NCBI GenBank assembly: GCA_021787535.1
Contig: JAJYLR010000001.1
Location: 449,687 to 490,320 of the forward strand
Reading direction: 5' to 3'
Length of the DNA: 40,634 bases
Source: a bacterium
Lineage (GTDB): Bacteria; Patescibacteriota; CPR2; UBA1875; JAJYID01
Shown here: positions 1-13,389 of the stretch, piece by piece
Position numbering within the stretch: the stretch's first letter is position 1
Layout of the letters: every line of letters begins with the position of its first letter
Notes under the pieces: model-generated
What the model was told of the DNA's origin: nothing
What the model saw: only the letters and a program-made list of their open reading frames with translations
Database searches by the model: none
Position numbers and translations under genes: made by a program

Positions 1-1
1 A

Positions 2-1060
2 CTCCATGTTATCGGAAGTGAGCGCCATGAAGCAAGGCGTATCGACAATCAGCTTCGAGGCCGTTGCGGACGCCAGGGCGATCCCGGATCTACGCAGTTC
101 TACGTATCTCTTGAGGATGATCTTATGAGAATTTTCGGCTCAGACAGGATCGGTGGAGTTATGGAAAAGCTCGGTTTACCGGAAGACCAGCCCATCCAGC
201 ATAAAATGATTTCCAAATCTCTGGAAAGCGCTCAGCGCAAAGTAGAAGGACATAACTTTGACATACGAAAACACTTAGTCGAATACGACGATGTAATGAA
301 TAAACAGCGCGAATATGTCTACGGGAAAAGACGAATGATCCTAGAAAACAGCGATTTAAAAACAGAAATCCTGGAGCATTTCAACGAAGCTAGCGAATAT
401 TTGGTCAATGAAAATATCAATGCCCAGACAGAGGAGTTTAATGCGGATGATTTTATAAAAACTTTTGAAGCTATCGTCCCGACAGATAATACTTTTAAGA
501 AAAAGATTCAAAAAGAAGATCCGGATAAAATAGTTGATCAAGCTATTTCCCATATCAAAAAACAATATGATGCTAGAGAAAAAGAGTTTACACCTGAAAT
601 AATGAGAAATATCGAACGATCGGTATACCTTCACATTATTGATACGCTATGGATTGACCATCTAGACGCTATAGATCACTTGAGGGAGGGGATAGGGCTT
701 CGAGCTTACGGCCAGATGGAGCCCCTGGTCGAATACAAGAAAGAATCTTACAGAATGTTTCAGCAATTTTTGGCAGGCATAAGAAGTGAAATAGTAAATA
801 TGATATTCAAAGTGCATCTCCAGAATCCGGAAGCAGAAGAAAAGACTCGGCTCGAAAAACTGTCTGAAAACTCTGTAGAACAGGGGGCTGAGAACCAAGC
901 AAATTCGAAAAACCAATCTCAAAACGCAAATATTATGCGCCGAGAAGCAGCCGGACAAGTCGAAAAAAATCAGACCGTTCAAAAGAATAATAAAGTCGGA
1001 CGAAACGATCCATGTCCATGCGGGTCAGGCAAAAAATACAAAAAGTGCTGCGGAAAGTAG
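2..1060 (+). CDS. secA: Preprotein translocase SecA, C-terminal part (5' end lies outside the window)
   Basis: Frame is open from base 2: LHVIGSERHEARRIDNQLRGRCGRQGDPG (SecA helicase motifs V/VI), then QRKVEGHNFDIRK, LREGIGLRAYGQ and the C-terminal SEC-C motif GRNDPCPCGSGKKYKKCCG. Confidence 0.98.
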   Translation, partial: LHVIGSERHEARRIDNQLRGRCGRQGDPGSTQFYVSLEDDLMRIFGSDRIGGVMEKLGLPEDQPIQHKMISKSLESAQRKVEGHNFDIRKHLVEYDDVMNKQREYVYGKRRMILENSDLKTEILEHFNEASEYLVNENINAQTEEFNADDFIKTFEAIVPTDNTFKKKIQKEDPDKIVDQAISHIKKQYDAREKEFTPEIMRNIERSVYLHIIDTLWIDHLDAIDHLREGIGLRAYGQMEPLVEYKKESYRMFQQFLAGIRSEIVNMIFKVHLQNPEAEEKTRLEKLSENSVEQGAENQANSKNQSQNANIMRREAAGQVEKNQTVQKNNKVGRNDPCPCGSGKKYKKCCGK

Positions 1061-1061
1061 T

Positions 1062-1090
1062 TCGACAATATAAAGTTTTTATGGTATCAT
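1062..1090 (+). promoter_or_regulatory. Sigma70-like promoter of small-peptide operon 1
   Basis: TCGACA-N17-TATCAT with TG upstream of the -10, ahead of GGGAGG and ORF 1138. Confidence 0.5.
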
Positions 1091-1137
1091 AATGCCTTGA
1101 GTTTTTAAAAACGTGTTCCTTCAACAAGGGAGGAAGT

Positions 1138-1329
1138 ATGTGGATACTTAATCTGATATTTCTGACCCTACTTTTTGTCTTATCTTATGTTCTCTGTTTG
1201 CCAGTTTCGGTCGTTCGAGCACTGAAAAAATGGAAAAAGGGAGCAACTGCACCAGTCGTGTTTTACACAACCTTTGAAATTCCGGGTAAGATTACTCTAT
1301 CCATTCTCAAAGTTATCGTAAAAAGCTAG
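1138..1329 (+). CDS. Small membrane protein, 63 aa
   Basis: SD AAGGGAGG; N-terminal hydrophobic helix followed by basic KKWKK. Confidence 0.65.
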   Translation: MWILNLIFLTLLFVLSYVLCLPVSVVRALKKWKKGATAPVVFYTTFEIPGKITLSILKVIVKS

Positions 1330-1342
1330 GAAGGAGAGATAA

Positions 1343-1480
1343 ATGAAAAAACTCATACTGGCCGCTACGGGTATAGCAGCAATCATATGGGTATTTCGAG
1401 ATAACATCTCGATATTCTTACAAAGTTGCGATGAACACATGTGCAAGGTTCTCGGTGTTCACTACACAGGAAAAATCTAA
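1343..1480 (+). CDS. Small membrane peptide, 45 aa (MKKLILAATGIAAIIWVFRDNISIFLQSCDEHMCKVLGVHYTGKI)
   Basis: Translated by hand (below the ORF-track cutoff); SD AAGGAG; single hydrophobic helix. Confidence 0.65.
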   Translation: MKKLILAATGIAAIIWVFRDNISIFLQSCDEHMCKVLGVHYTGKI

Positions 1481-1504
1481 GTAATATCCAGGGAGGTGAA
1501 TATT

Positions 1505-1663
1505 TTGCACAAGTTCAAGATTTTCAGCTGGATGTCCATCTTAATCCTTCTTGGCTGGATTTGCCGGGATGAGATTCGCGAACATCTAGAAACACGCCGC
1601 AACCATCAAAGATACTCTGATGACTGGGGTAGAATGGAAGGTGCTATGCTGCACTGCCGATAA
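1505..1663 (+). CDS. Small membrane peptide, 52 aa, TTG start (MHKFKIFSWMSILILLGWICRDEIREHLETRRNHQRYSDDWGRMEGAMLHCR)
   Basis: Perfect SD GGAGGTGA 5 nt before TTG; TM helix then WxxRDxI, as in the preceding peptide. Confidence 0.6.
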   Translation: MHKFKIFSWMSILILLGWICRDEIREHLETRRNHQRYSDDWGRMEGAMLHCR

Positions 1664-1681
1664 AAAGCAACACAAGAGGCG

Positions 1682-1743
1682 GGAACTCCCAAATTTTTGG
1701 GAGTTCCAATCGCGGCTCGAAGAAGATCTTCGAGTCTTTTTTT
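1682..1743 (+). terminator. Double hairpin / intrinsic terminator
   Basis: GGAACTCCCAAA/TTTGGGAGTTCC stem, then CTCGAAGA/TCTTCGAG stem followed by a T run. Confidence 0.75.
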
Positions 1744-1817
1744 GTATAAACAACCATTTAAGAAAAAACGATTCTGCATTAGTATTTCACCTAGCAACTT
1801 ATTAACTAACCAACTAT

Positions 1818-2261
1818 ATGGAGCTTACAAGTCCCGCATTTGAAAACGATGAAACAATACCTGCAAGATATACTTGCGACGGCGAAAATATCAGCCCGCC
1901 TTTTGAGATTGTCGATATTCCCGATCATACCAAATCATTTGCTATGACTATGATCGACCCTGACGCGCCAAACGGCACCTTTATTCACTGGACACTCTGG
2001 AATATTTCACCAATTACCACCTTTATTGAGGAGGACGCTGCGCCGCCGGAAGCGATTCAAGGAAAAAATAGTGCCGGCCAATCAAAATATATGGGTCCCT
2101 GCCCGCCACAAGGTGCAGAACATCGTTACGTTTTCACTCTCTATGCCTTAGACACGGCAATACATCTGGCCGAGGATGCTGCTATAGAAAAACTTGAAGC
2201 ATATATTGAAAACCACAATCTGGCAGAAGCTGAACTTATAGGAAGATATGGGAGAACATAA
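1818..2261 (+). CDS. YbhB/YbcL family (PEBP, Raf kinase inhibitor-like) protein
   Basis: LTSPAF, YTCDGENISPP, DPDAP..F.HW, Y.GPCPP...HRY.FTLYALD. Confidence 0.93.
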   Translation: MELTSPAFENDETIPARYTCDGENISPPFEIVDIPDHTKSFAMTMIDPDAPNGTFIHWTLWNISPITTFIEEDAAPPEAIQGKNSAGQSKYMGPCPPQGAEHRYVFTLYALDTAIHLAEDAAIEKLEAYIENHNLAEAELIGRYGRT

Positions 2262-2654
2262 ATGAAAAGTCTGATTATCCAAACAAAACAGAAAAAAGAA
2301 GTGGCAGACATAACCGCCGTTATTGATGAAGCGATAGAACTTGAAAATAGCGAAAATGCCTATCTTTGCCACATCTTTATAACCCACACTACAGCTTGTC
2401 TCGCCACTTGTGATCTCGATCCTGGCACAGATCTCGACATGCTCGATGCTTTTGATAAAATAATTCCTAAGTTAAACTATCGCCATCCGCATGACCCGAG
2501 CCATGTTCCCAATCATATTTTATCCTCAATAATCGGTGCATCTGTGACAATTCCGGTTGTCAAAGATAAGCTTTTTCTCGGCCGCTGGCAAAGAGTGGTT
2601 CTCGTCGAACTCGACGGCCCGAAAGACAGAGAAGTGATAATTAATCTGATTTAA
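2262..2654 (+). CDS. yjbQ: YjbQ/UPF0047 family protein
   Basis: HTTA, YRHPH..SH, LFLGRWQRVVLVELDGP.R motifs. Confidence 0.9.
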   Translation: MKSLIIQTKQKKEVADITAVIDEAIELENSENAYLCHIFITHTTACLATCDLDPGTDLDMLDAFDKIIPKLNYRHPHDPSHVPNHILSSIIGASVTIPVVKDKLFLGRWQRVVLVELDGPKDREVIINLI

Positions 2655-2665
2655 GCACGATAAGA

Positions 2666-2694
2666 TTGACAAAATCTTCATTTTCATTTATAAT
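2666..2694 (+). promoter_or_regulatory. Perfect consensus sigma70 promoter
   Basis: TTGACA (2666-2671)-N17-TATAAT (2689-2694). Confidence 0.85.
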
Positions 2695-2731
2695 CTCTAA
2701 GTCCTGAAATTTTTTCAACCAGGGGAGGTTG

Positions 2732-2896
2732 ATGCACATGCTTCGGAAATCAATATTTATCATTGGCATAATATGTTTACTGCTAGCTTTGAAATTAGTC
2801 AGCAGACATATTAACAGGAGGAAAACAAGCAATCCTAGAATTCATTTTGCCGGATTTTTCGATCCGGGCTGGGGCTATATTAAAAAGGAGAGTTGA
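2732..2896 (+). CDS. Small membrane peptide, 54 aa (MHMLRKSIFIIGIICLLLALKLVSRHINRRKTSNPRIHFAGFFDPGWGYIKKES)
   Basis: Follows the consensus promoter; SD GGGGAGGT; one TM helix; its TGA overlaps the next ATG (TGATG). Confidence 0.65.
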   Translation: MHMLRKSIFIIGIICLLLALKLVSRHINRRKTSNPRIHFAGFFDPGWGYIKKES

Positions 2897-3363
2897 TGCA
2901 CATGAACCACAAAAGCGTTCTGGGAGTATTACTGGGAGTTTCATTGGTTATCATCGGAATTTTGGAAGTTTTTGCCAGGGCTCCGGAGGCAAGAAATGCG
3001 GTCGGGTATCTTTTCATGATACTTTTATGTATCATCGGAATCGTGATCATGGGAGTTGTGATATTCCGGGATAAAGAAGTATACGAACGGTTTTTCCTGG
3101 GCGGCATCGGAGTAATGACTCTGGTTATCCCGATATTACTCACAATATTACTTCTTCCGTGGAAAAACGCAGATGTAGGAATATTGGCGCTCATTATCGC
3201 TATCTTTCTTGCAGGGCTTTTCATGCTCCTGCAAGGAATAGCTCTGAGCAGACCGGTAAAACTAACATTAGATGATTTCAATGATCCTTATTGTCCAGTC
3301 TGCGACAACATATTTCCTTTCGCAAACAAGGATGATAATTGTCCAAATGGCTGTTTGCCATAA
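2896..3363 (+). CDS. Hypothetical 4-TM membrane protein with C-terminal zinc-ribbon-like Cys motif
   Basis: Four hydrophobic segments; CPVC...CPNGC at the C-terminus; SD AAGGAG. Confidence 0.75.
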   Translation: MHMNHKSVLGVLLGVSLVIIGILEVFARAPEARNAVGYLFMILLCIIGIVIMGVVIFRDKEVYERFFLGGIGVMTLVIPILLTILLLPWKNADVGILALIIAIFLAGLFMLLQGIALSRPVKLTLDDFNDPYCPVCDNIFPFANKDDNCPNGCLP

Positions 3364-3380
3364 ACCACTATTCAAGGACA

Positions 3381-3409
3381 AAAGGGACGGCCCCGCGCTG
3401 TCCCTTTTT
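3381..3409 (+). terminator. Intrinsic terminator
   Basis: AAAGGGACGG..CTGTCCCTTT stem plus T run. Confidence 0.7.
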
Positions 3410-3487
3410 CATTTTCATGTTTTTGAACATATTAAAACTGTTTTGATTTTCATATATTAGTATTGTTGTTAAATTAAGGGGGTCAAG

Positions 3488-3853
3488 ATGCCAAAGGTTA
3501 TACATTTTGAATTCGGAGCAGGCGATCCGAAAAGAGCTATAAAGTTCTATGAAGACGTTTTTCAATGGAAAGCCACAAAATACCCGGGTAATGTGGATTA
3601 CTGGCTAATCAAAGCCGGGGATGACAAAGAGATGGGCATAAACGGTGCGATTACTCCAAAACAGAAGGGTTGGAATATCTCAAATAGCATAGCCGTTCAT
3701 TCAGTCGACGAATTTATTGAGCGAATAGAAATGCATGGCGGGGAAGTGACGACAGAAAAAATGGCTATTCCCAAAATGGGCTATATGGCATATTTCAAAG
3801 ACACAGAAGGAAACACATTGAGTATTTTTGAAACTGACCCGAACGCCAAATAA
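3488..3853 (+). CDS. VOC / glyoxalase-bleomycin resistance family protein
   Basis: VIHFE...D..RA..FY..VF.W, GINGAI, G.MAYFKDTEGN. Confidence 0.92.
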   Translation: MPKVIHFEFGAGDPKRAIKFYEDVFQWKATKYPGNVDYWLIKAGDDKEMGINGAITPKQKGWNISNSIAVHSVDEFIERIEMHGGEVTTEKMAIPKMGYMAYFKDTEGNTLSIFETDPNAK

Positions 3854-3922
3854 CTTAAATTTTTGTATTAAACGAGTGATGGGTTTATAATTGCGTTTTC
3901 AAAGTACCTTAGGAGGTAGAAG

Positions 3923-4267
3923 ATGCTTTCTCTTGCGCATCCGGCAGTCCATATTTCGAGCTTTGTAAAAGACAGAAATGTTGCTGAAATTTTTACCATA
4001 AAAGAGTTTAGCGAAACCTTGACCGGCAAAAAATTCTGGACATTGGATATCCTACATGGCTTTATCAAAGACAAAAATTTCTTGAAATCAGCCAATCGGG
4101 ATCGCAAAATACTCATTGATCTCCTTCATATTGAAGAAGTTCAAGAGATATCATTCCGGCGCAATATTCTTTCAGTGCGTGTTTCGAGTAGTGAAAAATG
4201 GAATGAGGTTTTGCCACAAATTGACGAAATTATGAAAGAATATCAGATCAAACTGAGATACCGATAG
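3923..4267 (+). CDS. Hypothetical protein, C-terminus resembles Nfu/NifU N-terminal scaffold domain
   Basis: SD AGGAGGT; LLHIEEVQEISF...LSV......W.EV.PQI pattern recalls Nfu_N (by eye only). Confidence 0.55.
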   Translation: MLSLAHPAVHISSFVKDRNVAEIFTIKEFSETLTGKKFWTLDILHGFIKDKNFLKSANRDRKILIDLLHIEEVQEISFRRNILSVRVSSSEKWNEVLPQIDEIMKEYQIKLRYR

Positions 4268-4319
4268 GCGCGCTTTTTACAGGCGCGCCTATCGCCTGGC
4301 CCTAGACGGGCTTTTTTTA
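4262..4319 (+). terminator. Double hairpin terminator
   Basis: CGATAGGCGCGC/GCGCGCCTATCG stem, then a GC stem ending in GGGC and T7. Confidence 0.7.
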
Positions 4320-4409
4320 TGCTTATTTTTATGTTACAATATTTCTGCCGGAGGTGAGATTTCCTCTGGTATTTTGATAAATGCAACGCGAACAAAAGGA
4401 CGTGAAAGC

Positions 4410-5015
4410 ATGAACCTTTATAACATTATAATATTCATTCTGGGAGCATATCTTCTGGGTTCAATCCATTTCGGGCTGATAGTCGGAAAGACTAAAGGGA
4501 TCGACATCCGAAAAGACGGAAGCGGTAACGTCGGAACAACAAATGTCTTCCGACTGCTCGGCAAAGGATGGGGGACAGTCGTTTTCATTTGCGACACGCT
4601 GAAGGGTTGGATACCGGTTTTTCTGGCGCTTCACTTGACCGGATCTGTAACTTTAGCAGTTCTGACAGCCGGTGCTGTTATCCTCGGACATACTTTTTCC
4701 GTTTTCCTGAAGTTCAAGGGTGGGAAAGGAGTGGCAACTGGACTGGGAACTATCATCTCGCTTATGCCTCTCCTGGCAGCAATCGTATTTATCGAGTTCT
4801 TTGTCATATTCTACCTCGGCAGAATAGTTTCTCTAGCTTCTCTATCAGCTATAGGAACACTGTTAGTTTTGGTTTTTGCGACTAAACAACCTCTAGCACT
4901 CGAAATATTTGTATCACTCAGCACACTGCTCATCTTTTATGCACACAGATCAAACATTGTCCGTCTATTTAAAGGCACTGAAAACAAATTCGGAAAAGCA
5001 AGGAGAACAACATGA
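4410..5015 (+). CDS. plsY: Acyl-phosphate glycerol-3-phosphate acyltransferase PlsY
   Basis: YLLGSI, DIR..GSGNVGTTN.FR, D.LKG, GH.FS.F..FKGGKGVAT, H.SNI.RL..GTE; ATG 4410 preferred over TTG 4374. Confidence 0.95.
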   Translation: MNLYNIIIFILGAYLLGSIHFGLIVGKTKGIDIRKDGSGNVGTTNVFRLLGKGWGTVVFICDTLKGWIPVFLALHLTGSVTLAVLTAGAVILGHTFSVFLKFKGGKGVATGLGTIISLMPLLAAIVFIEFFVIFYLGRIVSLASLSAIGTLLVLVFATKQPLALEIFVSLSTLLIFYAHRSNIVRLFKGTENKFGKARRTT

Positions 5016-5341
5016 GAGAAGCAATGAAAGAAATGGCGCAACAACTTTCTGATCTTAGAAATATCGCGTATATAAAAGGCAGCGATCAAAGCTCAGATGA
5101 TTGCGAGTACTGCATGGCCGCCGCCGCCGTAACAATGGTTATCGAGCATGAGCTTGATGAGATGTATCTAGAAGACAAGGTAGATCATTCGCGTCTTAGA
5201 ATACTTGTCGAAGCCCTAGGCGCAATAACCGAACCTATTTCTGACCCTGAAATCAAGGAACTGACTGAGAAAATCACCAGTTCTCGGTATAAGATAGCAA
5301 CTCGATACCAACCTTTACCTGCCCATCAGGAGCCATCATGA
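5012..5341 (+). CDS. Hypothetical protein
   Basis: ATGA overlap with plsY, SD AGGAG, contains CEYC. Confidence 0.7.
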   Translation: MREAMKEMAQQLSDLRNIAYIKGSDQSSDDCEYCMAAAAVTMVIEHELDEMYLEDKVDHSRLRILVEALGAITEPISDPEIKELTEKITSSRYKIATRYQPLPAHQEPS

Positions 5342-5751
5342 TCAATGCTATTTCTCACATAGCAGATATACTGATGATTCAAAGAAGCGCAACAGAGTTC
5401 ATGAATGACCGGATAGTTTATTTGGTCACTCAGGAAGCACCTATAGCGAATTTCTATTTCCTGGATAGCTTGATAGTCTTTGAACGAAAAGGCAAGTGGC
5501 AAAAAGGGGAAATAGAAATTCTAGAAAAGGCCTTGCATAAAATAGGCATTGATGAGCCGATGAAAGTACATCAAACGGCTCTTCCTATTGATCCACAGAC
5601 CGGACAAGATCTTCTGCTAAAAAGAAATGAGCTGTCAACAAAACTCAAAAAATGGTTTGAATGGATCATCCCTCTTTCGGTTTCTGTTTCAATCTTAATA
5701 TTTGTTGAGGGCTTCATCATCTATGATACATTAACCGGAATGAATAAATAA
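5338..5751 (+). CDS. Hypothetical protein with C-terminal TM helix
   Basis: ATGA overlap, SD AGGAG; hydrophobic C-terminus. Confidence 0.7.
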   Translation: MINAISHIADILMIQRSATEFMNDRIVYLVTQEAPIANFYFLDSLIVFERKGKWQKGEIEILEKALHKIGIDEPMKVHQTALPIDPQTGQDLLLKRNELSTKLKKWFEWIIPLSVSVSILIFVEGFIIYDTLTGMNK

Positions 5752-5754
5752 AGA

Positions 5755-5782
5755 AGGGCCGAACACCGACGATTCGGCCCTC
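5755..5782. terminator. Hairpin between convergent genes
   Basis: AGGGCCGAA/TTCGGCCCT stem. Confidence 0.6.
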
Positions 5783-5804
5783 TAAGACCACATATTTGGT
5801 CTTT

Positions 5805-6011
5805 TTATTTTTTATTAATATACTTCCAGAGAGCAATAATTGCCATAATGAGCACAACAATAACTAGGATATAAACTATCCATATAAAGACAAAAGCGAA
5901 GCCGGAGTTTCCGCCCGTCATATTCTGTACGTTATCATAGTTCATCATCGGCATACCGTATAAACCGTCTCCATGAGCGAGTATTGCACTGCCTAATGCT
6001 AAATAATTCAT
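5805..6011 (-). CDS. Small membrane protein, 68 aa, Met-rich N-terminal region with an AHGD motif
   Basis: ATG at 6011 with SD GGAGA; MNYLALGSAILAHGDGLYGMPMMNY..., C-terminal TM and KK tail; divergent from dsbA. Confidence 0.7.
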   Translation of the reverse strand: MNYLALGSAILAHGDGLYGMPMMNYDNVQNMTGGNSGFAFVFIWIVYILVIVVLIMAIIALWKYINKK

Positions 6012-6079
6012 TTTAAATCTCCATTTTGATGCAACAACGTTAACATACATTCCAAAAGAAGCAAACCTTAACAAAAATC

Positions 6080-6108
6080 TTGACCTTTTGCCGAATACAA
6101 ATTAGCAT
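6080..6108 (+). promoter_or_regulatory. Promoter of dsbA-like gene
   Basis: TTGACC-N17-TAGCAT; shares GAATACAAAWTAGCATT with the promoter at 7001. Confidence 0.65.
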
Positions 6109-6140
6109 TTAATTTAATCAATAATGGAAGGCGCAAAATA

Positions 6141-6908
6141 ATGGCAGAAGAAAAAAATCAAAAGAATGCATCTGCAAAGAAAAAATCTTCACAGCAAGGA
6201 TTCCTCTATGGCGTAATTATTGCGCTTTTAATCATGATGGGTATTCTTTTATTTATAGTTTTAAATGACCGAAACGCAGGCGTAAAGAGCAACTCAGACC
6301 AGGGTACTCAAGGCACGGACACCGCGCAGCAGGCACCCAGTCAAAGTGCAGATATTTCCAAGGTGGATACAAAGGGTGAACCATTTATCGGCAATCAGGA
6401 TGCGCCGGTAACTATGGCCTACTGGTTTGATTACCAGTGCCCGTACTGCAAAAAGTTTGAAACTGATACTTTACCGGAACTGAAGAAGAAATATATAGAT
6501 ACCGGAAAACTTAAGGTGGTTTTCAAAGATTTTCAATTTCTAGGACCAGACTCTCAAACTGCAGGAGCTGCCGCCGAAGCTGTCTGGGAACTTTACCCGA
6601 GCAAATTCTTTGATTGGCAGACCGCAATTTTCAATGCCCAGGGTACGGAGAATAGCGGTTATGATTCTAAAGATAATATTATCAAACTCACAAAAACTAT
6701 ATCAGGAATTGATGCCGATAAAGTATCAAATTTAATGGATCAGAAGAAATCAGATATTCAAACAGAGCTTGATGGAGATAAAACAGAAGGAGAAGGTATG
6801 GGAGTTGAGTCTACTCCGGCGTTCATCATAGGAAAACAGCTGATTAATGGCGCCGAATCGGCCAGTACGTTTGAAAAAGCAATCGACAGCGAACTCAACA
6901 AAAAATAA
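6141..6908 (+). CDS. Membrane-anchored DsbA/BdbD-family thiol-disulfide oxidoreductase
   Basis: N-terminal TM; G..DAPVT....DYQCPYCKKF; cis-Pro loop GVESTPAF.IG. Confidence 0.93.
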   Translation: MAEEKNQKNASAKKKSSQQGFLYGVIIALLIMMGILLFIVLNDRNAGVKSNSDQGTQGTDTAQQAPSQSADISKVDTKGEPFIGNQDAPVTMAYWFDYQCPYCKKFETDTLPELKKKYIDTGKLKVVFKDFQFLGPDSQTAGAAAEAVWELYPSKFFDWQTAIFNAQGTENSGYDSKDNIIKLTKTISGIDADKVSNLMDQKKSDIQTELDGDKTEGEGMGVESTPAFIIGKQLINGAESASTFEKAIDSELNKK

Positions 6909-6929
6909 AGATTGGCCAAATATTAAGCG

Positions 6930-6969
6930 AACAACCCTTAAGTGAATCATCCGAGGGTTGTTTTGTTTT
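6930..6969 (+). terminator. Intrinsic terminator
   Basis: AACAACCCTT/GAGGGTTGTT stem plus T-rich tail. Confidence 0.6.
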
Positions 6970-7000
6970 GGTATTGAAATAATATTTTAAAATAAAATTC

Positions 7001-7053
7001 TTGACACGCTTTTGAATACAAAATAGCATTAAAATATTCAAAAAACTGAATAT
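7001..7053 (+). promoter_or_regulatory. Promoter with downstream palindromic operator
   Basis: TTGACA-N17-TAGCAT (7001-7029), then ATATTC-N8-GAATAT (7034-7053). Confidence 0.7.
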
Positions 7054-7073
7054 AAGCTTAACTATTTTAATCA

Positions 7074-7562
7074 ATGCCAAAAAAATATATCATCTTAGGT
7101 TTTGTGGTACTCCTCGTGATTATTGTGATTTCTGTTTTTGCAGCGTCAAACAGTACGGTAAAAACTGTTTCGCCGGATGACCCAAACAGACCTATAGCAA
7201 AGGTGGAAGAAACTAGCTTCGATCTTGGCAAAATGAATGAAAAAGACACCAAAGACCATGAGTTCAAAATCACAAATACCGGCAAAAGTAATCTTGTTCT
7301 AAGCGAGATGTCCACCTCCTGCATGTGCACATACGGCTACATCATAAAAAGCGATGGCACCAAAAGCCCGCAGTTTTCTATGCATGGCGGCTTTGATAAT
7401 AAGACAGAAGTGGCACCGGGTGATTCTGTGATGGCACAGGTGATATACCAGCCATCGCTTATGCCCGTCGAAGGACCCGTTGAAAGGTATGCATCCATCG
7501 GCACCAATGATCCGAATATGCCCAAGGTAGAACTGGAAGTAAAAGCGGATGTTGCAAAGTAA
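7074..7562 (+). CDS. DUF1573-domain exported protein
   Basis: Signal/TM; FDLG.......HEF.ITNTG...L.L....TSCMCT...VAPG; TNDP. Confidence 0.85.
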   Translation: MPKKYIILGFVVLLVIIVISVFAASNSTVKTVSPDDPNRPIAKVEETSFDLGKMNEKDTKDHEFKITNTGKSNLVLSEMSTSCMCTYGYIIKSDGTKSPQFSMHGGFDNKTEVAPGDSVMAQVIYQPSLMPVEGPVERYASIGTNDPNMPKVELEVKADVAK

Positions 7563-8233
7563 TGAATCCCATTGCTCTTTTTGTGGCCGGTCTAACTGAC
7601 TCTTATAACCCCTGTAGTATCGGAGTACTTTTAGTGTCATTAACTTTTTTAGTGGGTCTTGGCAAAAGAAAACTTATTAGCATCTTCGGACTCAGTTATT
7701 TATCTTTAATATTTCTAACTTATTTCTTGATCGGGCTTGGAGTGCTGCGAGCCTTTCACATCTTCGGCATCCACGGATTTTTTGCTTATGCGGCGGGAAT
7801 AGTCTTAATAGTCGTGGCGATCATCCATGTGCTTCCAATGTACTTAAAGCGGATGCCGATCTTTGCGTGGTTTAACCGCTGCCACATCCCGGCCCGGCTT
7901 GATCAGCACCTTGATAAAGGGGTTTTTATCGCCGGCGCAATTCTCGGCTTTCTGATGGGACTCTGCACCGTCCCTTGCGCGGGAGGAATCTATATGGGGG
8001 CAATAGCGCTAGTTTCTGCTAGCATGACTTTCTGGCAGGGAGTAGCCGGAATTTTTATCTTCAATGTCGGTTTTATCCTTCCCCTTGCTATAATATTCGT
8101 ACTGGCATCCAGGAAAACAATGCTTGAAAAAATGAAAAAAATCAATGTGCGCATTACGGCCTACAGCCCTTACATTATTTCAGTTATAATGATTCTGATG
8201 GGACTGGCACTTATTTATACAGCGAAGATGTAA
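7562..8233 (+). CDS. CcdA/DsbD-like transmembrane disulfide interchange protein
   Basis: About 6 TM helices; DS.NPC in TM1 and CTVPCAGG.Y in TM4. Confidence 0.8.
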   Translation: MNPIALFVAGLTDSYNPCSIGVLLVSLTFLVGLGKRKLISIFGLSYLSLIFLTYFLIGLGVLRAFHIFGIHGFFAYAAGIVLIVVAIIHVLPMYLKRMPIFAWFNRCHIPARLDQHLDKGVFIAGAILGFLMGLCTVPCAGGIYMGAIALVSASMTFWQGVAGIFIFNVGFILPLAIIFVLASRKTMLEKMKKINVRITAYSPYIISVIMILMGLALIYTAKM

Positions 8234-8255
8234 TTTATAGGTTTTTTAGATTCAT

Positions 8256-8275
8256 ATATTCTAAACATTGAATAT
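8256..8275. promoter_or_regulatory. Palindromic operator upstream of arsR-like gene
   Basis: ATATTC-N8-GAATAT, same geometry as 7034-7053. Confidence 0.6.
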
Positions 8276-8302
8276 ATTTTTATGTGGGTGTAATATATTT
8301 TT

Positions 8303-8800
8303 ATGACGCTTACAATTTTCGATCTGCATTCAGATATTTTCAAAATCTTGGCCAATCCTAAGAGGTTGGAAATAATCCATTTAATTCGAGATTGTGAACT
8401 TACAGTCAGCGAACTTGAGGAGATGCTGGATATGCGCCAAGCAAATATTTCTCAGCATCTTATGGTGCTTAGGGAAAATAATCTGGTAAAATCCAGAAGA
8501 GAAGGAACACATATTTATTATTCTTTGGCCGACCCTAAAATACTTGAAGCAAGCGATCTCATCCGCGAAGTCCTGCAGAACAAGTTCAAAGGGGCAAAGC
8601 ACATCACCGGACTCATCGATAACGATATGCATATGGAAGATTATCTTAAAGAACATAAAGATCCGGTGTGCGGCATGATGGTCAGCGCCAAAACAGCCGC
8701 CGATCATACAAAATATAAAGGTAAAGATTATTTCTTCTGTGCTAGGGGCTGTAAGGAAAAGTTTTTGAGAGAAAATGTAAATCAAGAGGAGATAAAATAA
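8303..8800 (+). CDS. ArsR/SmtB transcriptional regulator fused to a C-terminal YHS (TRASH) metal-binding domain
   Basis: FK.LA.PKRL.I..L, SQHL..LR...LV..RREG..IYYSL; KDPVCGM.V......Y.GK.YFFC..GC...F. Confidence 0.92.
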   Translation: MTLTIFDLHSDIFKILANPKRLEIIHLIRDCELTVSELEEMLDMRQANISQHLMVLRENNLVKSRREGTHIYYSLADPKILEASDLIREVLQNKFKGAKHITGLIDNDMHMEDYLKEHKDPVCGMMVSAKTAADHTKYKGKDYFFCARGCKEKFLRENVNQEEIK

Positions 8801-8887
8801 ATGGATAAAATAGTTGTGTTAATTTTAGGCATAACAGCAATTATCTTTATTTTATGGTTTTTCTTAGGGAGAAAATCCATAAAATGA
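8801..8887 (+). CDS. 28-aa single-TM mini-protein (MDKIVVLILGITAIIFILWFFLGRKSIK)
   Basis: ATG directly after the arsR stop, SD GAGGAG; recalls the N-terminal anchor of CupA-type cupredoxin copper chaperones. Confidence 0.6.
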   Translation: MDKIVVLILGITAIIFILWFFLGRKSIK

Positions 8888-8989
8888 CTACTTAAAAATT
8901 CCTAATGTTCAAATTTGAAAATTAACTAATTACTGCATTCATTGGAAATTGGGACTTGAAAATTGAAAATTTATATTTAACTAAAGAAG

Positions 8990-11257
8990 ATGAACAAAGA
9001 CAACGAAAAAGAATCTAAGAAAATAAAAACTACCCTGAAAGTCAAAGGTATGCACTGCGCCGGATGCGCTATGAATATCGAGCGAAGCTTAAATAAGCTG
9101 CCAGGCACAAAAGCTGTCGTTAACTTCGCCAGTGAAAAGGTTGTGGTCGAACATCCTGAAACAGTTGCCAGAACTGACATTATCCAGTCTATCCGCGACA
9201 CCGGCTACGACGTTTATGACGATGACGATGAGTCAGGATCTTCTGCTCCGATACTTGCAACGGGTACTTCTCCGGAAGAGGAAGGAAAGAAAAAAGAAGT
9301 TAGGGAACTGAGGATAAAAGTAATAACCGGAGCTACTCTTTCTGTTATTATTCTAATGTTAGGAAACCTGCATTTCATACCTGCTCTCAAGGATATTTTC
9401 GGCAATTTTATAAATGTAATTCTTCTATTCCTCGTTCTTCCTGTTCAGTTTTGGGTAGGTAGGAATTTTATCACCGGATTTATAAACGGGCTGAAGCACA
9501 GAAATGCCAATATGGATTCCCTTGTGGCTATCGGCACGTTGACCGCTTTTTTCTTTAGCACAGCCGTAACTTTCCTTGAACTTGCCGGGTTTAAGATCCA
9601 AAGTATCGGCACCTATTTTGACGTCTCGGCCATGGTTATAACTCTTGTCCTTCTAGGAAAATACTTTGAAGCACGGGCAAAGGGTCGTGCCAATACTTCC
9701 ATCAAAAAACTGGCAGGCCTCGGAGCCAAAACTGCTAAAGTAATCCGAAATGGGAAAGAAATAGATATTCCCATCGAAACAGTAAAAGTCGGTGATGAAA
9801 TAATAGTCCGACCGGGCGAGAAGGTGCCGGTAGACGGCACAATTGTTTCCGGCCAATCCTCTATAGACGAGTCTATGGTCACGGGAGAGTCAATTCCGGC
9901 TGACAAATCCAAAGGCGATAAAGTTTACGGCGCAACTATCAACAGATCCGGGTCATTCAATTTTAAAGCGGAAAAAGTAGGCAAGGACACATTGCTTGCC
10001 CAAATCATAAAACTGGTCGAAGAAGCTCAAGGATCTAAAGCTCCGGTTCAAAAGCTAGCCGATGTCATATCAAGTTACTTCGTGCCGATCGTTATTTCTA
10101 TAAGCATCGCAGCGTTTGTTGTCTGGTATATCTTTGCCGGCCTCACCATAGCCCTTCTTGCTATGGTGGCCATAGTCGTCATTGCCTGCCCCTGCGCTCT
10201 CGGTTTGGCAACTCCGACAGCTATAATGGTAGGTACAGGCAGGGGCGCTGAAAACGGTATTTTAATAAAGGACGCAGAAAGTTTGGAAAAGTTTCAAAAG
10301 ATAAATGCCATTTTGCTTGACAAAACGGGTACTATTACAAAGGGGGAACCGGAAGTTGTAGATGTGTACAACATATCAAATTTATCCGAAAATGATTTTA
10401 TTAAATTTTCAGCGGCAACTGAAAAAAGAAGCGAACATCCTTTGGGCCAAGCCGTGGTTAAAGAAGCTGAGAAACGAAAAGTTGTACTGGATGAACCTAA
10501 AAACTTTCAATCTATATCAGGCCAGGGCGTAAAGGCGGAGATCGGGGATAAAATAGTAGTGAAAGGTAGTGAGAAACTCATGAAAAAAGAAAAGATTCAA
10601 TTGCCTGAAAATCTAATAAAAAAAGCGGAAGTTTTTGCCAAAGAAGGGAAAACCCCGGTGTTTACAGCTATAGACGGTAAGGCCGCCGGAGTGATAGCCA
10701 TTGCAGATACGATAAAAAATGACTCAAAAGAGGCAATTCAGCGCTTTGAAAACACTGCTATAGATGTCTATATGGTGACCGGCGACAATAGATATACCGC
10801 CGAAGCGATCGCCAAAAAAGCAGGCATTCCCGGCAAAAATGTCTTTGCCGAAGTGGCGCCGAAAGATAAAGAGAAAAAAGTGAAAGAGCTGCAGGAAAAG
10901 GGACTGTCTGTCGCCATGGCGGGTGACGGCATAAACGACGCCCCTGCGCTTGCCGCGGCTGACATCGGAGTGGCAATGGGCACGGGCACGGATATAGCCA
11001 TGGAAGCTGGACAAGTGACGATTATGAACGGTAGTTTAGACACTACATATAGCGCTTTGGAGCTATCGAAAGACACTATGAAGATCATTAAAGAAAATCT
11101 TTTCTGGGCATTTGCCTATAATGTGATTTTGATACCGGTAGCCGCAGGCATTCTTTATCCCTTTACCGGATTTATCTTAAACCCCATCATCGCCGGGGCA
11201 GCCATGGCATTTAGTTCTGTGACGGTGGTTACGAATTCACTACGGCTCAGAAGATAG
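8990..11257 (+). CDS. copA: Copper-translocating P1B-type ATPase
   Basis: GMHCAGC HMA domain, [31 protein letters not shown] and MAFSS Cu(I) ligands. Confidence 0.97.
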
Positions 11258-11348
11258 AGATTATAATTCAATGACTGGCTTTCAATCCAATCTGAAGTGT
11301 TTTTGATATATTAAGAATACAAAAATTTTATATAACTGAAAGTCTAGC

Positions 11349-11377
11349 TGGACATTTGTAAATTTTTATGATATAAT
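11349..11377 (+). promoter_or_regulatory. Promoter of small-peptide operon 3
   Basis: TGGACA-N17-TATAAT with extended TG. Confidence 0.7.
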
Positions 11378-11420
11378 GTTAGCTAAGTAAGTTTTTCCAT
11401 TCAACTACGGAGGTACCTTT

Positions 11421-11600
11421 ATGTGTATTCCTTTTTTACCGGATGACGCACCTGTCTTCCGGCTCGTCCGAGAAAAGTCCCAGAATGGCAAAAGAGTACC
11501 TAAGGTGAGATTGCGGGATCGCTGCAGAATACGCAGCAAGGCACAGCTATCATCGCATCCCCATGTAGCGGTAAACTGCTATTGGGGGAAATATGTTTAA
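11421..11600 (+). CDS. Small basic protein, 59 aa (MCIPFLPDDAPVFRLVREKSQNGKRVPKVRLRDRCRIRSKAQLSSHPHVAVNCYWGKYV)
   Basis: SD GGAGGT 6 nt upstream; first ORF after the promoter. Confidence 0.5.
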   Translation: MCIPFLPDDAPVFRLVREKSQNGKRVPKVRLRDRCRIRSKAQLSSHPHVAVNCYWGKYV

Positions 11601-11709
11601 CGGTTTATCGAACAACATTTTCGGGTTCGCTGAGATGATTGCATCTATGACCATCATCGCGACGGTTGGGAAATGGATGGCCAAGAAGTTCTTTGCACAT
11701 ATCCTTTGA
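11593..11709 (+). CDS. Small hydrophobic/amphipathic peptide, 38 aa (MFNGLSNNIFGFAEMIASMTIIATVGKWMAKKFFAHIL)
   Basis: 8-nt overlap with the upstream ORF; GGGGG upstream. Confidence 0.55.
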   Translation: MFNGLSNNIFGFAEMIASMTIIATVGKWMAKKFFAHIL

Positions 11710-11754
11710 AACCATTCCAAATGCAAAGGATTTCAAACAGTGGAGGGGAAAAGA

Positions 11755-11847
11755 ATGAAAAGAAAACTCACCATCATAGCCGGTGTCTTTGTTGCACTGG
11801 CAGCACTGGTAAAACTCTATAACTGGATTGATGAGACTAGCTGTTGA
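11755..11847 (+). CDS. Small TM peptide, 30 aa (MKRKLTIIAGVFVALAALVKLYNWIDETSC)
   Basis: SD GGAGGGG; basic N-terminus then hydrophobic helix; followed by a terminator. Confidence 0.6.
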   Translation: MKRKLTIIAGVFVALAALVKLYNWIDETSC

Positions 11848-11869
11848 CTAATCCGAATTAGTGTTTTCG

Positions 11870-11897
11870 GGGCTCTCTGCGGGGAGCCCTATTTTTT
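11870..11897 (+). terminator. Intrinsic terminator
   Basis: GGGCTCTC/GGGAGCCC stem plus TATTTTTT. Confidence 0.8.
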
Positions 11898-12013
11898 GTG
11901 CAAAATACTTGTGTTCAATGTAAAATCAGTTTATTATTTGTGATAACTCACAATTAAAGAAAAGTGTTTTTGTTTTAGAATAAGGGCGAAATGGCCCAAG
12001 CAGGGAAAATCAC

Positions 12014-12042
12014 TTGACAGACAAAAGTGTTTATGATATATT
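12014..12042 (+). promoter_or_regulatory. Promoter with long structured leader
   Basis: TTGACA-N17-TATATT with extended TG. Confidence 0.65.
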
Positions 12043-12246
12043 CATATATCAACCATAAACGTTGATGAACGTTGATTGCATTGGAGGGTCAGGAGAGACC
12101 TTCCTTTGTATTTTAAAATAAAAAAAGGCAGGACATTGGGCTTAAACTATTGAGCTCAAGATCATGCTTTTTGCAGGCACTTTAAAAATAGCTGTCTTTC
12201 TCTGGGGAAAGGCAGAAAAAATATATAGTACCGCAAGGGGGTTAAG

Positions 12247-12348
12247 GTGAGACACTGGAATACACTAAAGAAAAGTCCAGAGTTTTGGTATTGGTTTGCC
12301 TTGGCAAGTTTAGCTATCGCTATGATATACCTGGCAGCCAAACTCTAA
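12247..12348 (+). CDS. Small TM peptide, 33 aa, GTG start (MRHWNTLKKSPEFWYWFALASLAIAMIYLAAKL)
   Basis: AAGGGGG upstream; C-terminal hydrophobic helix. Confidence 0.5.
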   Translation: MRHWNTLKKSPEFWYWFALASLAIAMIYLAAKL

Positions 12349-12370
12349 ATTCAAAAACACAGAAAAAGAG

Positions 12371-13243
12371 GTGAGACCCATGACAGTAACAAGGAAAACC
12401 TTGTTAAAGGCGGTTCTTGGAGTCATCGTGCTTGCCGCCTTGACAGTGACGATTGGAGTATTGACACACAGGCAAGATGCTTATGCAGCAACCACTGGCA
12501 AGGGCGGACAAAGCGGACCGGTTGCTGGTTGTACTTTGCCTAGTAACAAGGGTGAGGCAAGAGCATACGCCAAGTGTGTCAAGGCACATGACGATAGCCA
12601 GCGCCTAGACTTTGATCATAAGCTCAACGGAGATCAAAGCTTTGTGGGAGATATCAAGCTTGAGCAAGAGGTCAGAGAACTGGTGGAGAAATGTCAGGTT
12701 TGCGTGGTGGAATTGCCTCCGGCAAATCCTGCACCAATCCTCACTGAACTTCAAATCCCCAATATCCAAGGGGATGACAGCGCTCCACTGTCTGATGCCG
12801 ATCGTGCAGCTATAGATAATATGGAAGAGATACACAATACCAACCAGGAGAACGCTTGGGCATATCTTATGTACTTCGAGCAGCGTATAGATTACTATAC
12901 GCACCCGAGGATAGAATGCCCTCCGGTTGTCGGAGCACCGCCAGTAGTATGCACAACATGTGTCACACCGCCGGTGATTACTCCATCTCCCGGTCCTGGT
13001 CCTGGCCCTGGTCCTGGTCCAAGTCCTTGTCCGCAAAAAATTTGCGGCGGGGCGCAACAGGGTAACCAGAGCGCACCGAAAAACGGATCACCCATACCTA
13101 ATCCCCCGGCATTACCGCCGGGTTCGGGCGGAGCCAGTAAAGGTACGCCTTCGACCGGCACAGCGCCAGGCGACTCATCGCAATCCGGCTCACCTACCGG
13201 TCCTGGTGCACCCGGAGTTGTTCATGATCCAAACAAAACCTAG
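12371..13243 (+). CDS. Secreted Pro/Gly/Cys-rich hypothetical protein
   Basis: Signal peptide ending AYA; CQVC, CTTC, CPQKIC; PG repeat; start may be ATG 12380 (SD GAGGTGA). Confidence 0.8.
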   Translation: MRPMTVTRKTLLKAVLGVIVLAALTVTIGVLTHRQDAYAATTGKGGQSGPVAGCTLPSNKGEARAYAKCVKAHDDSQRLDFDHKLNGDQSFVGDIKLEQEVRELVEKCQVCVVELPPANPAPILTELQIPNIQGDDSAPLSDADRAAIDNMEEIHNTNQENAWAYLMYFEQRIDYYTHPRIECPPVVGAPPVVCTTCVTPPVITPSPGPGPGPGPGPSPCPQKICGGAQQGNQSAPKNGSPIPNPPALPPGSGGASKGTPSTGTAPGDSSQSGSPTGPGAPGVVHDPNKT

Positions 13244-13321
13244 ATTCAGATCCCAGAAGCTGAATCTAAATCCCCCGCAGGGACCTGAGCGAGTACACCT
13301 CGTTCAGGTCCCCTCGCGGGG
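13241..13321 (+). other. Two stable intergenic hairpins
   Basis: TAGATTCAG/CTGAATCTA and a long CCCCGC.GGGACCTGAGCGAG/CTCGTTCAGGTCCC..GCGGGG stem; no U tract. Confidence 0.6.
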
Positions 13322-13389
13322 ACAATCAAGCTACTATTTCATATTAATCAATAATTAATAATAACAAGAGAGAAAGGCAGTAAAAAAAA

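Follow-up and report, generated by a model that had tools for sequence, protein, structure and literature searches.

Small hydrophobic proteins of bacteria are known from several kinds of systems. Accessory subunits such as KdpF, CydX, AcrZ, MgtS, and PmrR comprise 30-65 amino acids (aa) with one hydrophobic helix and efficient translation signals, and binding to a larger membrane protein is the mode of action of most proteins of this size that have been characterised. Type I toxins like Hok/Mok, Fst, TisB, Ldr, and Ibs are short hydrophobic single-helix peptides from short stand-alone units, and their translation is tightly repressed. Phage holin and lysis cassettes as well as two-peptide bacteriocin loci consist of runs of small membrane-protein genes with a fast sequence turnover. 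In bacteria of the Candidate Phyla Radiation (CPR), 76 of 106 CPR-enriched protein families contain at least one transmembrane (TM) helix and most lineage-enriched families are membrane proteins of unknown function, as stated in the respective study (PMC6744442). In a 40,634-nucleotide (nt) stretch from the genome of a bacterium of the Patescibacteriota, which is called the window in the following, an operon of three small open reading frames (ORF1, ORF2, and ORF3) for hydrophobic proteins was identified directly downstream of secA, at positions 1062-1743 of the forward strand.

The three products resemble the accessory proteins in length, in their hydrophobic helix and in their efficient translation signals, and they probably also act by binding a larger membrane protein. 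However, they show no sequence relation to KdpF, CydX or similar proteins (Pfam, NCBIfam, PHROGs, and PADLOC), diverge far faster, and have their genes lined up in a separate transcription unit, outside any partner's operon. The accessible parts of the searched literature on small membrane proteins of Patescibacteria/CPR and on membrane genes downstream of secA contain no account of such operons. The reading preferred here is that 1062-1743 represents a genuine operon with a promoter and a terminator of its own, whose three small, lineage-specific membrane proteins would serve as accessory subunits; taken as a whole, this is judged to be an even call.

The window corresponds to C2:449687-490320 of the genome under study (G000; 945 kb, 97% complete, 7 contigs), whose relatives have sizes of 0.5-1.3 Mb. 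The relatives used below comprise the congeneric genome G001, the genomes G005 and G007 of a sister genus, G008 of a third genus and further genomes of the family. G005 and G007 are nearly identical and therefore do not represent independent observations. The stretch is contained in three DNA runs of one mine-drainage metagenome study, one of which may be its source; the contigs are near-identical to it, with three differences, each in a single contig at low depth, and provide no usable population variation.

All elements that an original prediction, made from the window alone, had placed at 1062-1743 are present, namely a promoter, three hydrophobic ORFs of 63, 45, and 52 aa, each led by a Shine-Dalgarno (SD) sequence, and a double-hairpin terminator (Table 1). 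The motif which it had described as shared behind the TM helix is also found, as WVFRDNI in ORF2 and as WICRDEI in ORF3. The four best sigma-70 matches in positions 1-14000 are located at 2666, 11349, 12014, and 1062, the same four sites as in that prediction. Promoter P1 begins 2 nt behind the secA stop codon and no terminator-like site between secA and the operon was found in positions 1000-1100, so that read-through from secA into the operon may be possible. An alternative GTG start of ORF3 at 1496 overlaps its SD sequence. The best 15-residue Kyte-Doolittle windows reach 2.73 for ORF1, 2.52 for ORF2, and 2.19 for ORF3. The hairpins of the cassettes, those of this terminator included, are single-copy in the genome (blastn-short) and do not belong to its dispersed palindromic repeats, and a two-hairpin layout is also present in G005 and G008.

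The coding status of the ORFs is ambiguous from composition by itself and is decided, as far as sequences can do so, by the comparison with relatives. A metagenome scan with the C-terminal part of SecA yielded no closer relatives: of the 80 loci kept, all with at most 50% identity, none carries a gene related to one of the nine peptides. A DNA search for homologues took in 41 relatives and gave matches in G005 and G007 only. In these genomes, the ORF1 homologue has 63 aa and aligns without gaps at 43% identity, and it is adjoined by an ORF2 homologue of 46-51 aa with 57% identity. The proportions of nonsynonymous (pN) and synonymous (pS) differences according to Nei-Gojobori are 0.33 and 0.73 for ORF1 and 0.27 and 0.83-0.87 for ORF2; the resulting pN/pS values of 0.45 and 0.32 are in both cases the lowest of the six frames. 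The differences per codon position amount to 28/18/35 in ORF1 and 16/11/27 in ORF2, and in a six-frame test on the gapless alignments the annotated frames are the only ones free of stop codons in both genomes. Between G005 and G007, ORF1 differs by one codon and ORF2 by four. Because of the in-frame, syntenic conservation in the sister genus, the lowest pN/pS and the sole stop-free frame, ORF1 and ORF2 are, by this comparison, coding and under purifying selection, and we regard both as real proteins with high confidence.

A profile of ORF1 was searched against 1.84 billion representatives and retrieved four proteins at E ≤ 1e-3, namely ORF1 itself, the G005 type, the 62-aa protein P0007 (E 8.6e-4), in which the motifs L-P-V-S..R-A and P-G are retained, and a 687-aa protein of repetitive sequence, which was judged spurious. 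A word-indexed protein search with ORF1 alone returned only the query. In G001, an 80-aa ORF1-like gene directly follows secA. The members of the family, as defined here, are about 62-63 aa long, except for the 80 aa of G001. Their N-terminal TM helix closes with L-P-[VI]-S-x-x-[RK]-A and is connected by a basic loop to another helix, which contains P-G-x-[IV] and L-[KN]..V-K with a terminal V-K. These features are found in the alignment of G000, G005, G007, P0007, and G001.

The motif W-V-F-R-[DN]-[ND]-I is carried by ORF2 and its homologues. The homologue of ORF3 is the third small ORF of G008 (57 aa, with WICKDEI; E 2.4e-4 per genome, BLASTP 2e-4). Both share the TM helix and W-I-C-[RK]-D-E-I at the same position behind it, and the homology, although weak, is supported by its context. 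ORF3 is thus probably a real protein as well, with clearly less assurance than the other two. On the whole, the view of the original prediction that these are genuine small membrane-protein genes was borne out, firmly for ORF1 and ORF2, whose frames are conserved with pN below pS when the peptides are sought in relatives, and through one weak homologue for ORF3. The term unannotated was appropriate for ORF3 only, which is missing from the predicted-protein collection, whereas ORF1 and ORF2 are already contained there and the G008 homologue of ORF3 is an NCBI 'hypothetical protein'. Pfam has no family for ORF1-3 at E ≤ 0.1, and PHROGs, PADLOC, and NCBIfam gave no match better than E 0.02 for them and their homologues. 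In kind, ORF1-3 are ordinary, i.e., lineage-specific hypothetical small membrane proteins which are covered by no curated family.

The place of the operon recurs within the family. Near the 3′ side of secA, one to three small SD-led hydrophobic ORFs were found in seven of the eight readable family genomes, a count which includes G005, G007, and G008, where one or two larger genes intervene; G004 is unreadable here, since its contig stops 99 nt past secA. Every ORF of these runs has a well-spaced SD core of 4-5 nt. In G005 and G007, the homologues of ORF1 and ORF2 lie between secA and a glyoxalase gene and are followed by a terminator and then by a homologue of c2_o2, the larger protein encoded next to the operon in G000 (Table 1); the order in G007 is secA, a 115-aa gene, ORF1, ORF2, c2_o2, and glyoxalase. 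In G002, secA is followed by three ORFs of 40, 59, and 48 aa, each with MKK plus a helix, and then by the c2_o2 homologue and glyoxalase, and in G003 three SD-led hydrophobic ORFs (59, 54, and 26 aa) lie right behind secA. G008 shows the order serS, hpf, secA, a 683-aa gene, a 230-aa gene, three SD-led hydrophobic ORFs (35, 47, and 57 aa) with a two-hairpin terminator, arsR-YHS, cupredoxin, and copA; the arsR-YHS and copA genes of G000 are located 7 kb further on. The C-terminal part of SecA in G001, G003, G006, and G004 is 76-91% identical to that of G000, compared with the 43% of ORF1 between G000 and G005. This leaves a single operon with very rapid divergence or a slot that is repeatedly refilled.

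In G001 (L116, G001:C6, 1-770), the C-terminal end of secA differs and is followed by an out-of-gene remnant of SEC-C coding sequence; behind the ORF1-like gene, a fragment of an integrase or insertion sequence (IS) type ends the contig. This points to a rearrangement at the spot downstream of secA in that genome.

The base rate of such ORFs was determined for the whole genome. With 865 long ORFs taken as genes, 421 gaps of at least 90 nt (127 kb in total) were scanned. They contain 107 SD-led intergenic ORFs of 25-99 aa, compared with 37.0 ± 5.5 in 30 mononucleotide shuffles and 49 in a reversed control. The TM-like subset, with a cut-off of 1.9 in a 17-residue window that ORF2 (1.76) and ORF3 (1.86) slightly miss, comprises 19 ORFs, compared with 1.9 ± 1.1 and 4. 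Runs of TM-like SD-led small ORFs are held by two of the 421 gaps, the operon and C2:190698-191300. The latter lies outside of the window and contains two TM-like ORFs of 63 and 84 aa, followed by a Cys-rich ORF of 48 aa. Small membrane proteins are hence a general feature of this genome, and the layout of three in a row is rare there. Among 863 long ORFs, a 5-nt SD core was found at the first start in 18%, within the first 40 codons in 28%, and at internal control sites in 2.4%, and 40% have no SD-like triplet at the first start. The statement that many genes here lack a strong SD is therefore roughly right; a strong SD is not special to the cassettes, since 18-28% of the genes have one.

Table 1. 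Features of the secA-downstream operon and of the three further units compared with it (positions in the window).
Feature	Position	Strand	Basis or remark
secA, 3′ end	2..1060	+	Pfam SecA_SW, P-loop_SecA, SEC-C
Promoter P1, TCGACA-17-TATCAT with extended -10 TG	1062..1090	+	consensus scan, 10/12
Leader motif TTCAAC-N2-GGGAGG, includes the SD of ORF1	1120..1133	+	motif search
ORF1, 63 aa, GGGAGG 4 nt ahead of ATG	1138..1329	+	predicted two-helix membrane hairpin
ORF2, 45 aa, AAGGAG 6 nt ahead of ATG	1343..1480	+	predicted single-pass: MKK, TM helix, WVFRDNI, 25-aa tail
ORF3, 52 aa, TTG start, GGAGG 8 nt ahead	1505..1663	+	predicted single-pass, WICRDEI behind the TM helix
Double-hairpin intrinsic terminator (1681-1707; 1714-1736 plus T7)	1681..1743	+	fold, -37.6 kcal/mol
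Cassette-2 promoter (12/12) and leader TTCAACC..GGGGAGG	2666..2728	+	consensus scan; motif at 2714-2728
c2_o1, 52 aa	2738..2896	+	on genome-specific insertion; coding score 0.06
c2_o2, 153 aa, four predicted TM helices and C-terminal Cys4 knuckle	2902..3363	+	homologues in G001, G002, G005, G007
Cassette-2 terminator	3380..3408	+	hairpin scan and fold
Cassette-3 promoter and leader, TTCAACTACGGAGG at 11400-11413	11349..11420	+	78% identical in G001, hexamer changed there
c3_o1, 59-codon frame, basic, not hydrophobic	11421..11600	+	coding score -0.14
c3_o2, 38-aa putative membrane micro-protein	11593..11709	+	coding score 0.37
c3_o3, 30-aa putative membrane micro-protein, coding status less certain	11755..11847	+	coding score 0.65
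'Cassette 4', promoter TTGACA-17-TGATATATT and transcript of about 70 nt	12007..12114	+	promoter at 12014-12042
c4_o1, micro-ORF for a 33-aa membrane peptide, behind the conserved RNA element	12247..12348	+	frame kept in G001 with a 3-nt indel

Several results weigh against the preferred reading. The dicodon coding scores are mediocre (ORF1 0.20, ORF2 0.09, ORF3 0.04), compared with a mean of 0.53 (standard deviation, sd, 0.24) for true gene fragments of 50 codons and -0.23 (sd 0.30) for decoy ORFs. The ORFs are distributed patchily: searches with these queries detected ORF1 in 4 of 28 genomes of the order including G000, one of them being a spurious match inside a larger ORF, ORF2 in 3 of 32 genomes of the class, and ORF3 in 2 of 28 genomes of the order. 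The only homologue match of ORF3 spans about 25 residues, and ORF3 is absent from the predicted-protein collection, as mentioned above. The similarity between ORF2 and ORF3 reaches BLASTP E 0.006 and an hhalign probability of 11.5%, which suggests a paralogy of the two at most weakly. In G006, no such ORFs are present in the 950 nt read behind secA, and the peptides of G002 and G003 cannot be aligned to those of G000, so the shared slot could reflect independent births instead of one diverging operon. In G005 and G007, c2_o2 forms a separate transcription unit behind the terminator. Finally, no RNA runs containing the stretch are listed.

The proposed function follows from the predicted build of the proteins. 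The AlphaFold2 (AF2) model of ORF1 consists of helices 2-33 and 38-62 at a predicted local distance difference test (pLDDT) score of 71 and resembles a hairpin with a short basic loop. In a Foldseek search against the PDB it had no match at E ≤ 0.001 (best E 5), and the ESM Atlas, with a best feature score of 0.78 and structure rows without a family, was uninformative. A complex prediction for ORF1 and ORF2 (score 0.00, mark 0.32) was returned as 'no answer' and is not used as evidence. ORF2 and ORF3 have a basic N-terminus, a helix, W-x-x-[RK]-[DN]-x-I, and a polar tail of 25-30 residues. Basic segments of membrane proteins face the cytoplasm (positive-inside rule), by which the N-termini of ORF2 and ORF3 and the loop of ORF1 would be cytoplasmic and the tails of ORF2 and ORF3 would point outward. 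Transcripts of the operon may start at its own strong promoter or continue from secA, and the double hairpin would end both of them. The strong promoter, the strong SD sequences and the tight spacing would lead to abundant, co-produced membrane proteins. Because of these abundance signals, and because characterised proteins of this size mostly bind larger membrane proteins, it is favored that they assist or modulate larger envelope proteins as subunits. The slot behind secA in which they are encoded is conserved in position, with sequences that diverge or are replaced quickly. The topology, the formation of a complex, the partner and the function are all inferred, and the assignment as accessory subunits is a tentative one.

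As a first candidate partner, c2_o2 may be considered. Its homologues lie between the small ORFs and the glyoxalase gene in relatives, diverge quickly, and form only five clusters in the protein collection; its AF2 model (pLDDT 60) is too poor for a fold search. To judge from these comparisons, it is a conserved, fast-evolving, lineage-specific membrane protein. The c2_o2 homologues of G005 and G007 are very different in sequence and in their Cys4 end, though ORF1 and ORF2 of the two genomes are almost identical.

Two other candidates were rejected. ORF1 is not a stand-in for SecE or SecG, as G000 has genes for SecG (55.7 bits) and SecE (64.8 bits) at other places and ORF1-3 match neither PF00584 nor PF03840. 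A leader-peptide attenuator does not fit three ORFs of 45-63 aa with constraint at the amino acid level, and the gene behind the double terminator is unrelated and absent at that place in relatives.

The main alternative, kept because of the turnover, is that the operon represents a conflict module (of a toxin/immunity, holin-like, superinfection-exclusion or bacteriocin-immunity-like type) whose small hydrophobic peptides would harm or shield membranes and evolve in an arms race. We consider this unlikely. It would account for the fast change at a fixed place, as seen in the identity of ORF1 compared with that of the SecA C-terminus in the family genomes measured and in the unalignable peptides of G002 and G003, as well as for the patchy distribution, the insulation by an own promoter and terminator and the integrase/IS fragment which abuts the locus in G001. 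However, a pN below pS indicates purifying and not diversifying selection. Like type I toxins, the ORFs are short, hydrophobic and encoded in a short stand-alone unit, but a scan for sigma-70-type sites revealed no promoter-like site on the minus strand of 1062-1743, as a type I system would need for its antisense RNA, and a near-consensus promoter with strong SD sequences would be self-defeating for a toxic peptide. In addition, ORF1 is a predicted two-helix hairpin of 63 aa, and neither PADLOC nor PHROGs gave a match, the only library hint being the similarity of one homologue to a MokW-like family (E 0.23). The operon shares with holin/lysis cassettes and two-peptide bacteriocin loci the run of small genes and the turnover, but neither an endolysin, a spanin, a peptidase-ABC (C39-peptidase) exporter nor a double-glycine leader is found nearby. 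Its neighbors are housekeeping or metal-homeostasis genes, and no PHROG matches at E < 0.005. The claim of the original prediction that the peptides may be host-contact effectors or toxins is thus not favored by anything tested.

Two special cases were dismissed separately. A holin/lysis cassette is not in line with the neighbors secA, PEBP, UPF0047, glyoxalase, Nfu-like, PlsY, DsbA-like, ArsR-YHS, and CopA and with the lack of a holin PHROG. A class II or two-peptide bacteriocin is not in line with peptides which begin with a hydrophobic helix or with MKK plus a helix, without a GG motif and without a neighboring ABC/C39 gene.

According to a further explanation, which appears improbable, the ORFs are mostly young or neutral: an AT-rich, strongly transcribed slot behind secA would spawn micro-ORFs, some of which (ORF1 and ORF2) became functional, with ORF3 and c2_o1 as proto-genes without a role. 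One case in favor of this is c2_o1. In G001, the same promoter and leader, TTCAACC..GGGAGG included, directly precede the 153-aa gene, whereas G000 carries an insertion of about 165 nt (2729-2896) which opens with a copy of the ribosome binding site and start region (12 identical nt) and contains a stretch of 27 nt, 26 of which are identical to a conserved part of a dCTP-deaminase-like gene (C2:386563-386589). As c2_o1 (52-55 aa) lies on this genome-specific insertion, which is absent from G001, and is lacking in G002, G005, and G007 as well, it is probably a young ORF confined to G000. Likewise, the frame of c3_o1 is lost in G001 through a 1-nt deletion, which leads to a stop after 28 codons, although the identity remains 72% over 180 nt. 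The agreement is limited to the first 11 codons, with one P/S change among them, and the fold z-score is -1.9; c3_o1 is probably not a 59-aa protein but a leader RNA or a short upstream ORF. The decoy-like coding scores of ORF3 and c2_o1 and the varying contents of the slot between genera also fit this explanation. On the other hand, ORF1 and ORF2 are clearly constrained, the seven-residue juxtamembrane motif of ORF3 is common to its homologue in another genus and, more loosely, to ORF2, and every ORF of the runs has a well-spaced SD core, whereas a 5-nt core is rare at internal control sites.

The original prediction had joined the operon with three further units, cassettes 2, 3, and in part 4, into one dispersed, possibly co-regulated system, with TTCAAC-N2-4-GGAGG in three of the leaders. 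This motif was indeed confirmed in the three leaders, at 1120-1133, 2714-2728, and 11400-11413. A hexamer at 2-4 nt ahead of the SD in three neighboring leaders within 10.3 kb is unlikely by chance and may reflect local copying of promoter-leader modules; its copy in cassette 2 is kept in G001, and near-consensus promoters are present at all four units. Nevertheless, a single system which is co-regulated through this leader is very improbable. Genome-wide, the motif occurs five times compared with about 1.2 times expected by composition, and beyond the three leaders these are one tRNA T-arm and one intragenic site; among the hexamers ahead of GGAGG, TTCAAC ranks 36th. The homologues of ORF1 in G001, G005, and G008 are not preceded by the motif, and it is changed in cassette 3 of G001, which thus keeps it in one of three leaders. 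It is also lacking in the fourth unit. A boxA-like element of rRNA leaders was rejected as well, since in the rRNA leader of the genome, which the operon's leader does not resemble, the hexamer is present only ahead of the promoter and is not transcribed. Hence, there is no sign of a regulon.

The recurrence of the architecture holds for the promoters and not for the contents of the units, whose peptides share no sequence and have different histories. In 2666-3409, the second ORF is no micropeptide but the four-helix protein of 153-156 aa, and in 11349-11897 the first ORF is basic instead of hydrophobic and broken in G001. The other ORFs of this third unit behave differently: c3_o2 has the same length in G001 and appears constrained (pS 0.57, pN 0.18), and c3_o3 shares its first 10 residues with G001, yet has a pN of 0.30 above a pS of 0.19. 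For c4_o1, the comparison with G001 gave a pS of 0.62 and a pN of 0.31.

Cassette 4 itself is, by its conservation, a leader or a small RNA and not a peptide cassette. Its element is present in all nine family genomes with 76-81% nt identity, is better conserved than the flanking genes, and lies in every genome 360-470 nt upstream of a proline-rich anchored protein. The predicted fold consists of a 7-bp hairpin, an invariant linker and a terminator hairpin of 17 bp, and with a covariance model, G000 and G003 reach 80-81 bits. Applied to 151 sampled genomes of the phylum, this model found nothing credible outside the family, only matches of about 30 bits on both strands in one other family. A search of Rfam at the gathering threshold and also at E up to 10 in 1000-3500 and 11300-12400 yielded tRNAs and noise only, and no family for the element.

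Some observations were made in its surroundings. A second conserved hairpin follows the element (12120-12175), and the 50-nt piece 12105-12154 has a copy with 77% identity at C2:524556-524605 and is also found in four relatives. By eye, the part 12065-12090 (TTGAATACAAAGGAGGG in relatives) looks similar to the first nucleotides of the leader of the rRNA operon (TTGAATACAAAAAAGGAGGGG) at C2:263222-263247. In G002, G003, and G006 (L103, L105, and L107), one or two single-helix ORFs of 60-67 aa each lie between copA and the element, i.e., at the place of cassette 3 in G000, and are not obviously alike except for G003 and G006; the interval is thus a second slot with changing micro-ORFs. Finally, an SD-led ORF of 28 aa at 8801-8887, between arsR-YHS (8303-8800) and copA (8990-11257), corresponds in sequence to the membrane anchor at the N-terminus of a 118-aa cupredoxin-like protein (PF13473) at the same position in G008 and looks like the remnant of a truncated cupredoxin.

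That the operon region is a non-coding RNA with accidental ORFs is hardly credible in spite of the strong promoter, the short transcript, the strong terminator and the modest coding scores, as no Rfam match beyond noise was obtained at E up to 10, the substitutions are codon-periodic and the annotated frames alone are open in both genomes.

Under-annotation of small membrane proteins is systematic, and this locus is a concrete, testable example. It offers two families of micro-proteins under constraint, one of the ORF1 type and one with W-x-x-[RK]-[DN]-x-I, and is a case study of the birth and turnover of small genes in reduced genomes, with c2_o1 caught soon after its birth by duplication or insertion. 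The operon alone does not open a long-standing question; the fixed slot with its fast turnover and the conserved RNA are most worth following, and the latter, a hairpin RNA of about 70 nt which all nine family genomes conserve together with its promoter, may be more tractable as a lead than the operon. A more far-reaching idea, which we regard as quite improbable, is that the place downstream of secA acts as a strongly expressed renewal slot in which the family keeps replacing outward-facing membrane micro-proteins in an arms race, e.g., for phage exclusion or for recognizing the surface of the host cell or being protected from it, possibly together with the fast-evolving four-helix Cys4 protein. 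If true, this would be a new kind of hypervariable envelope locus made of micro-proteins, in ultra-small and probably host-dependent bacteria.

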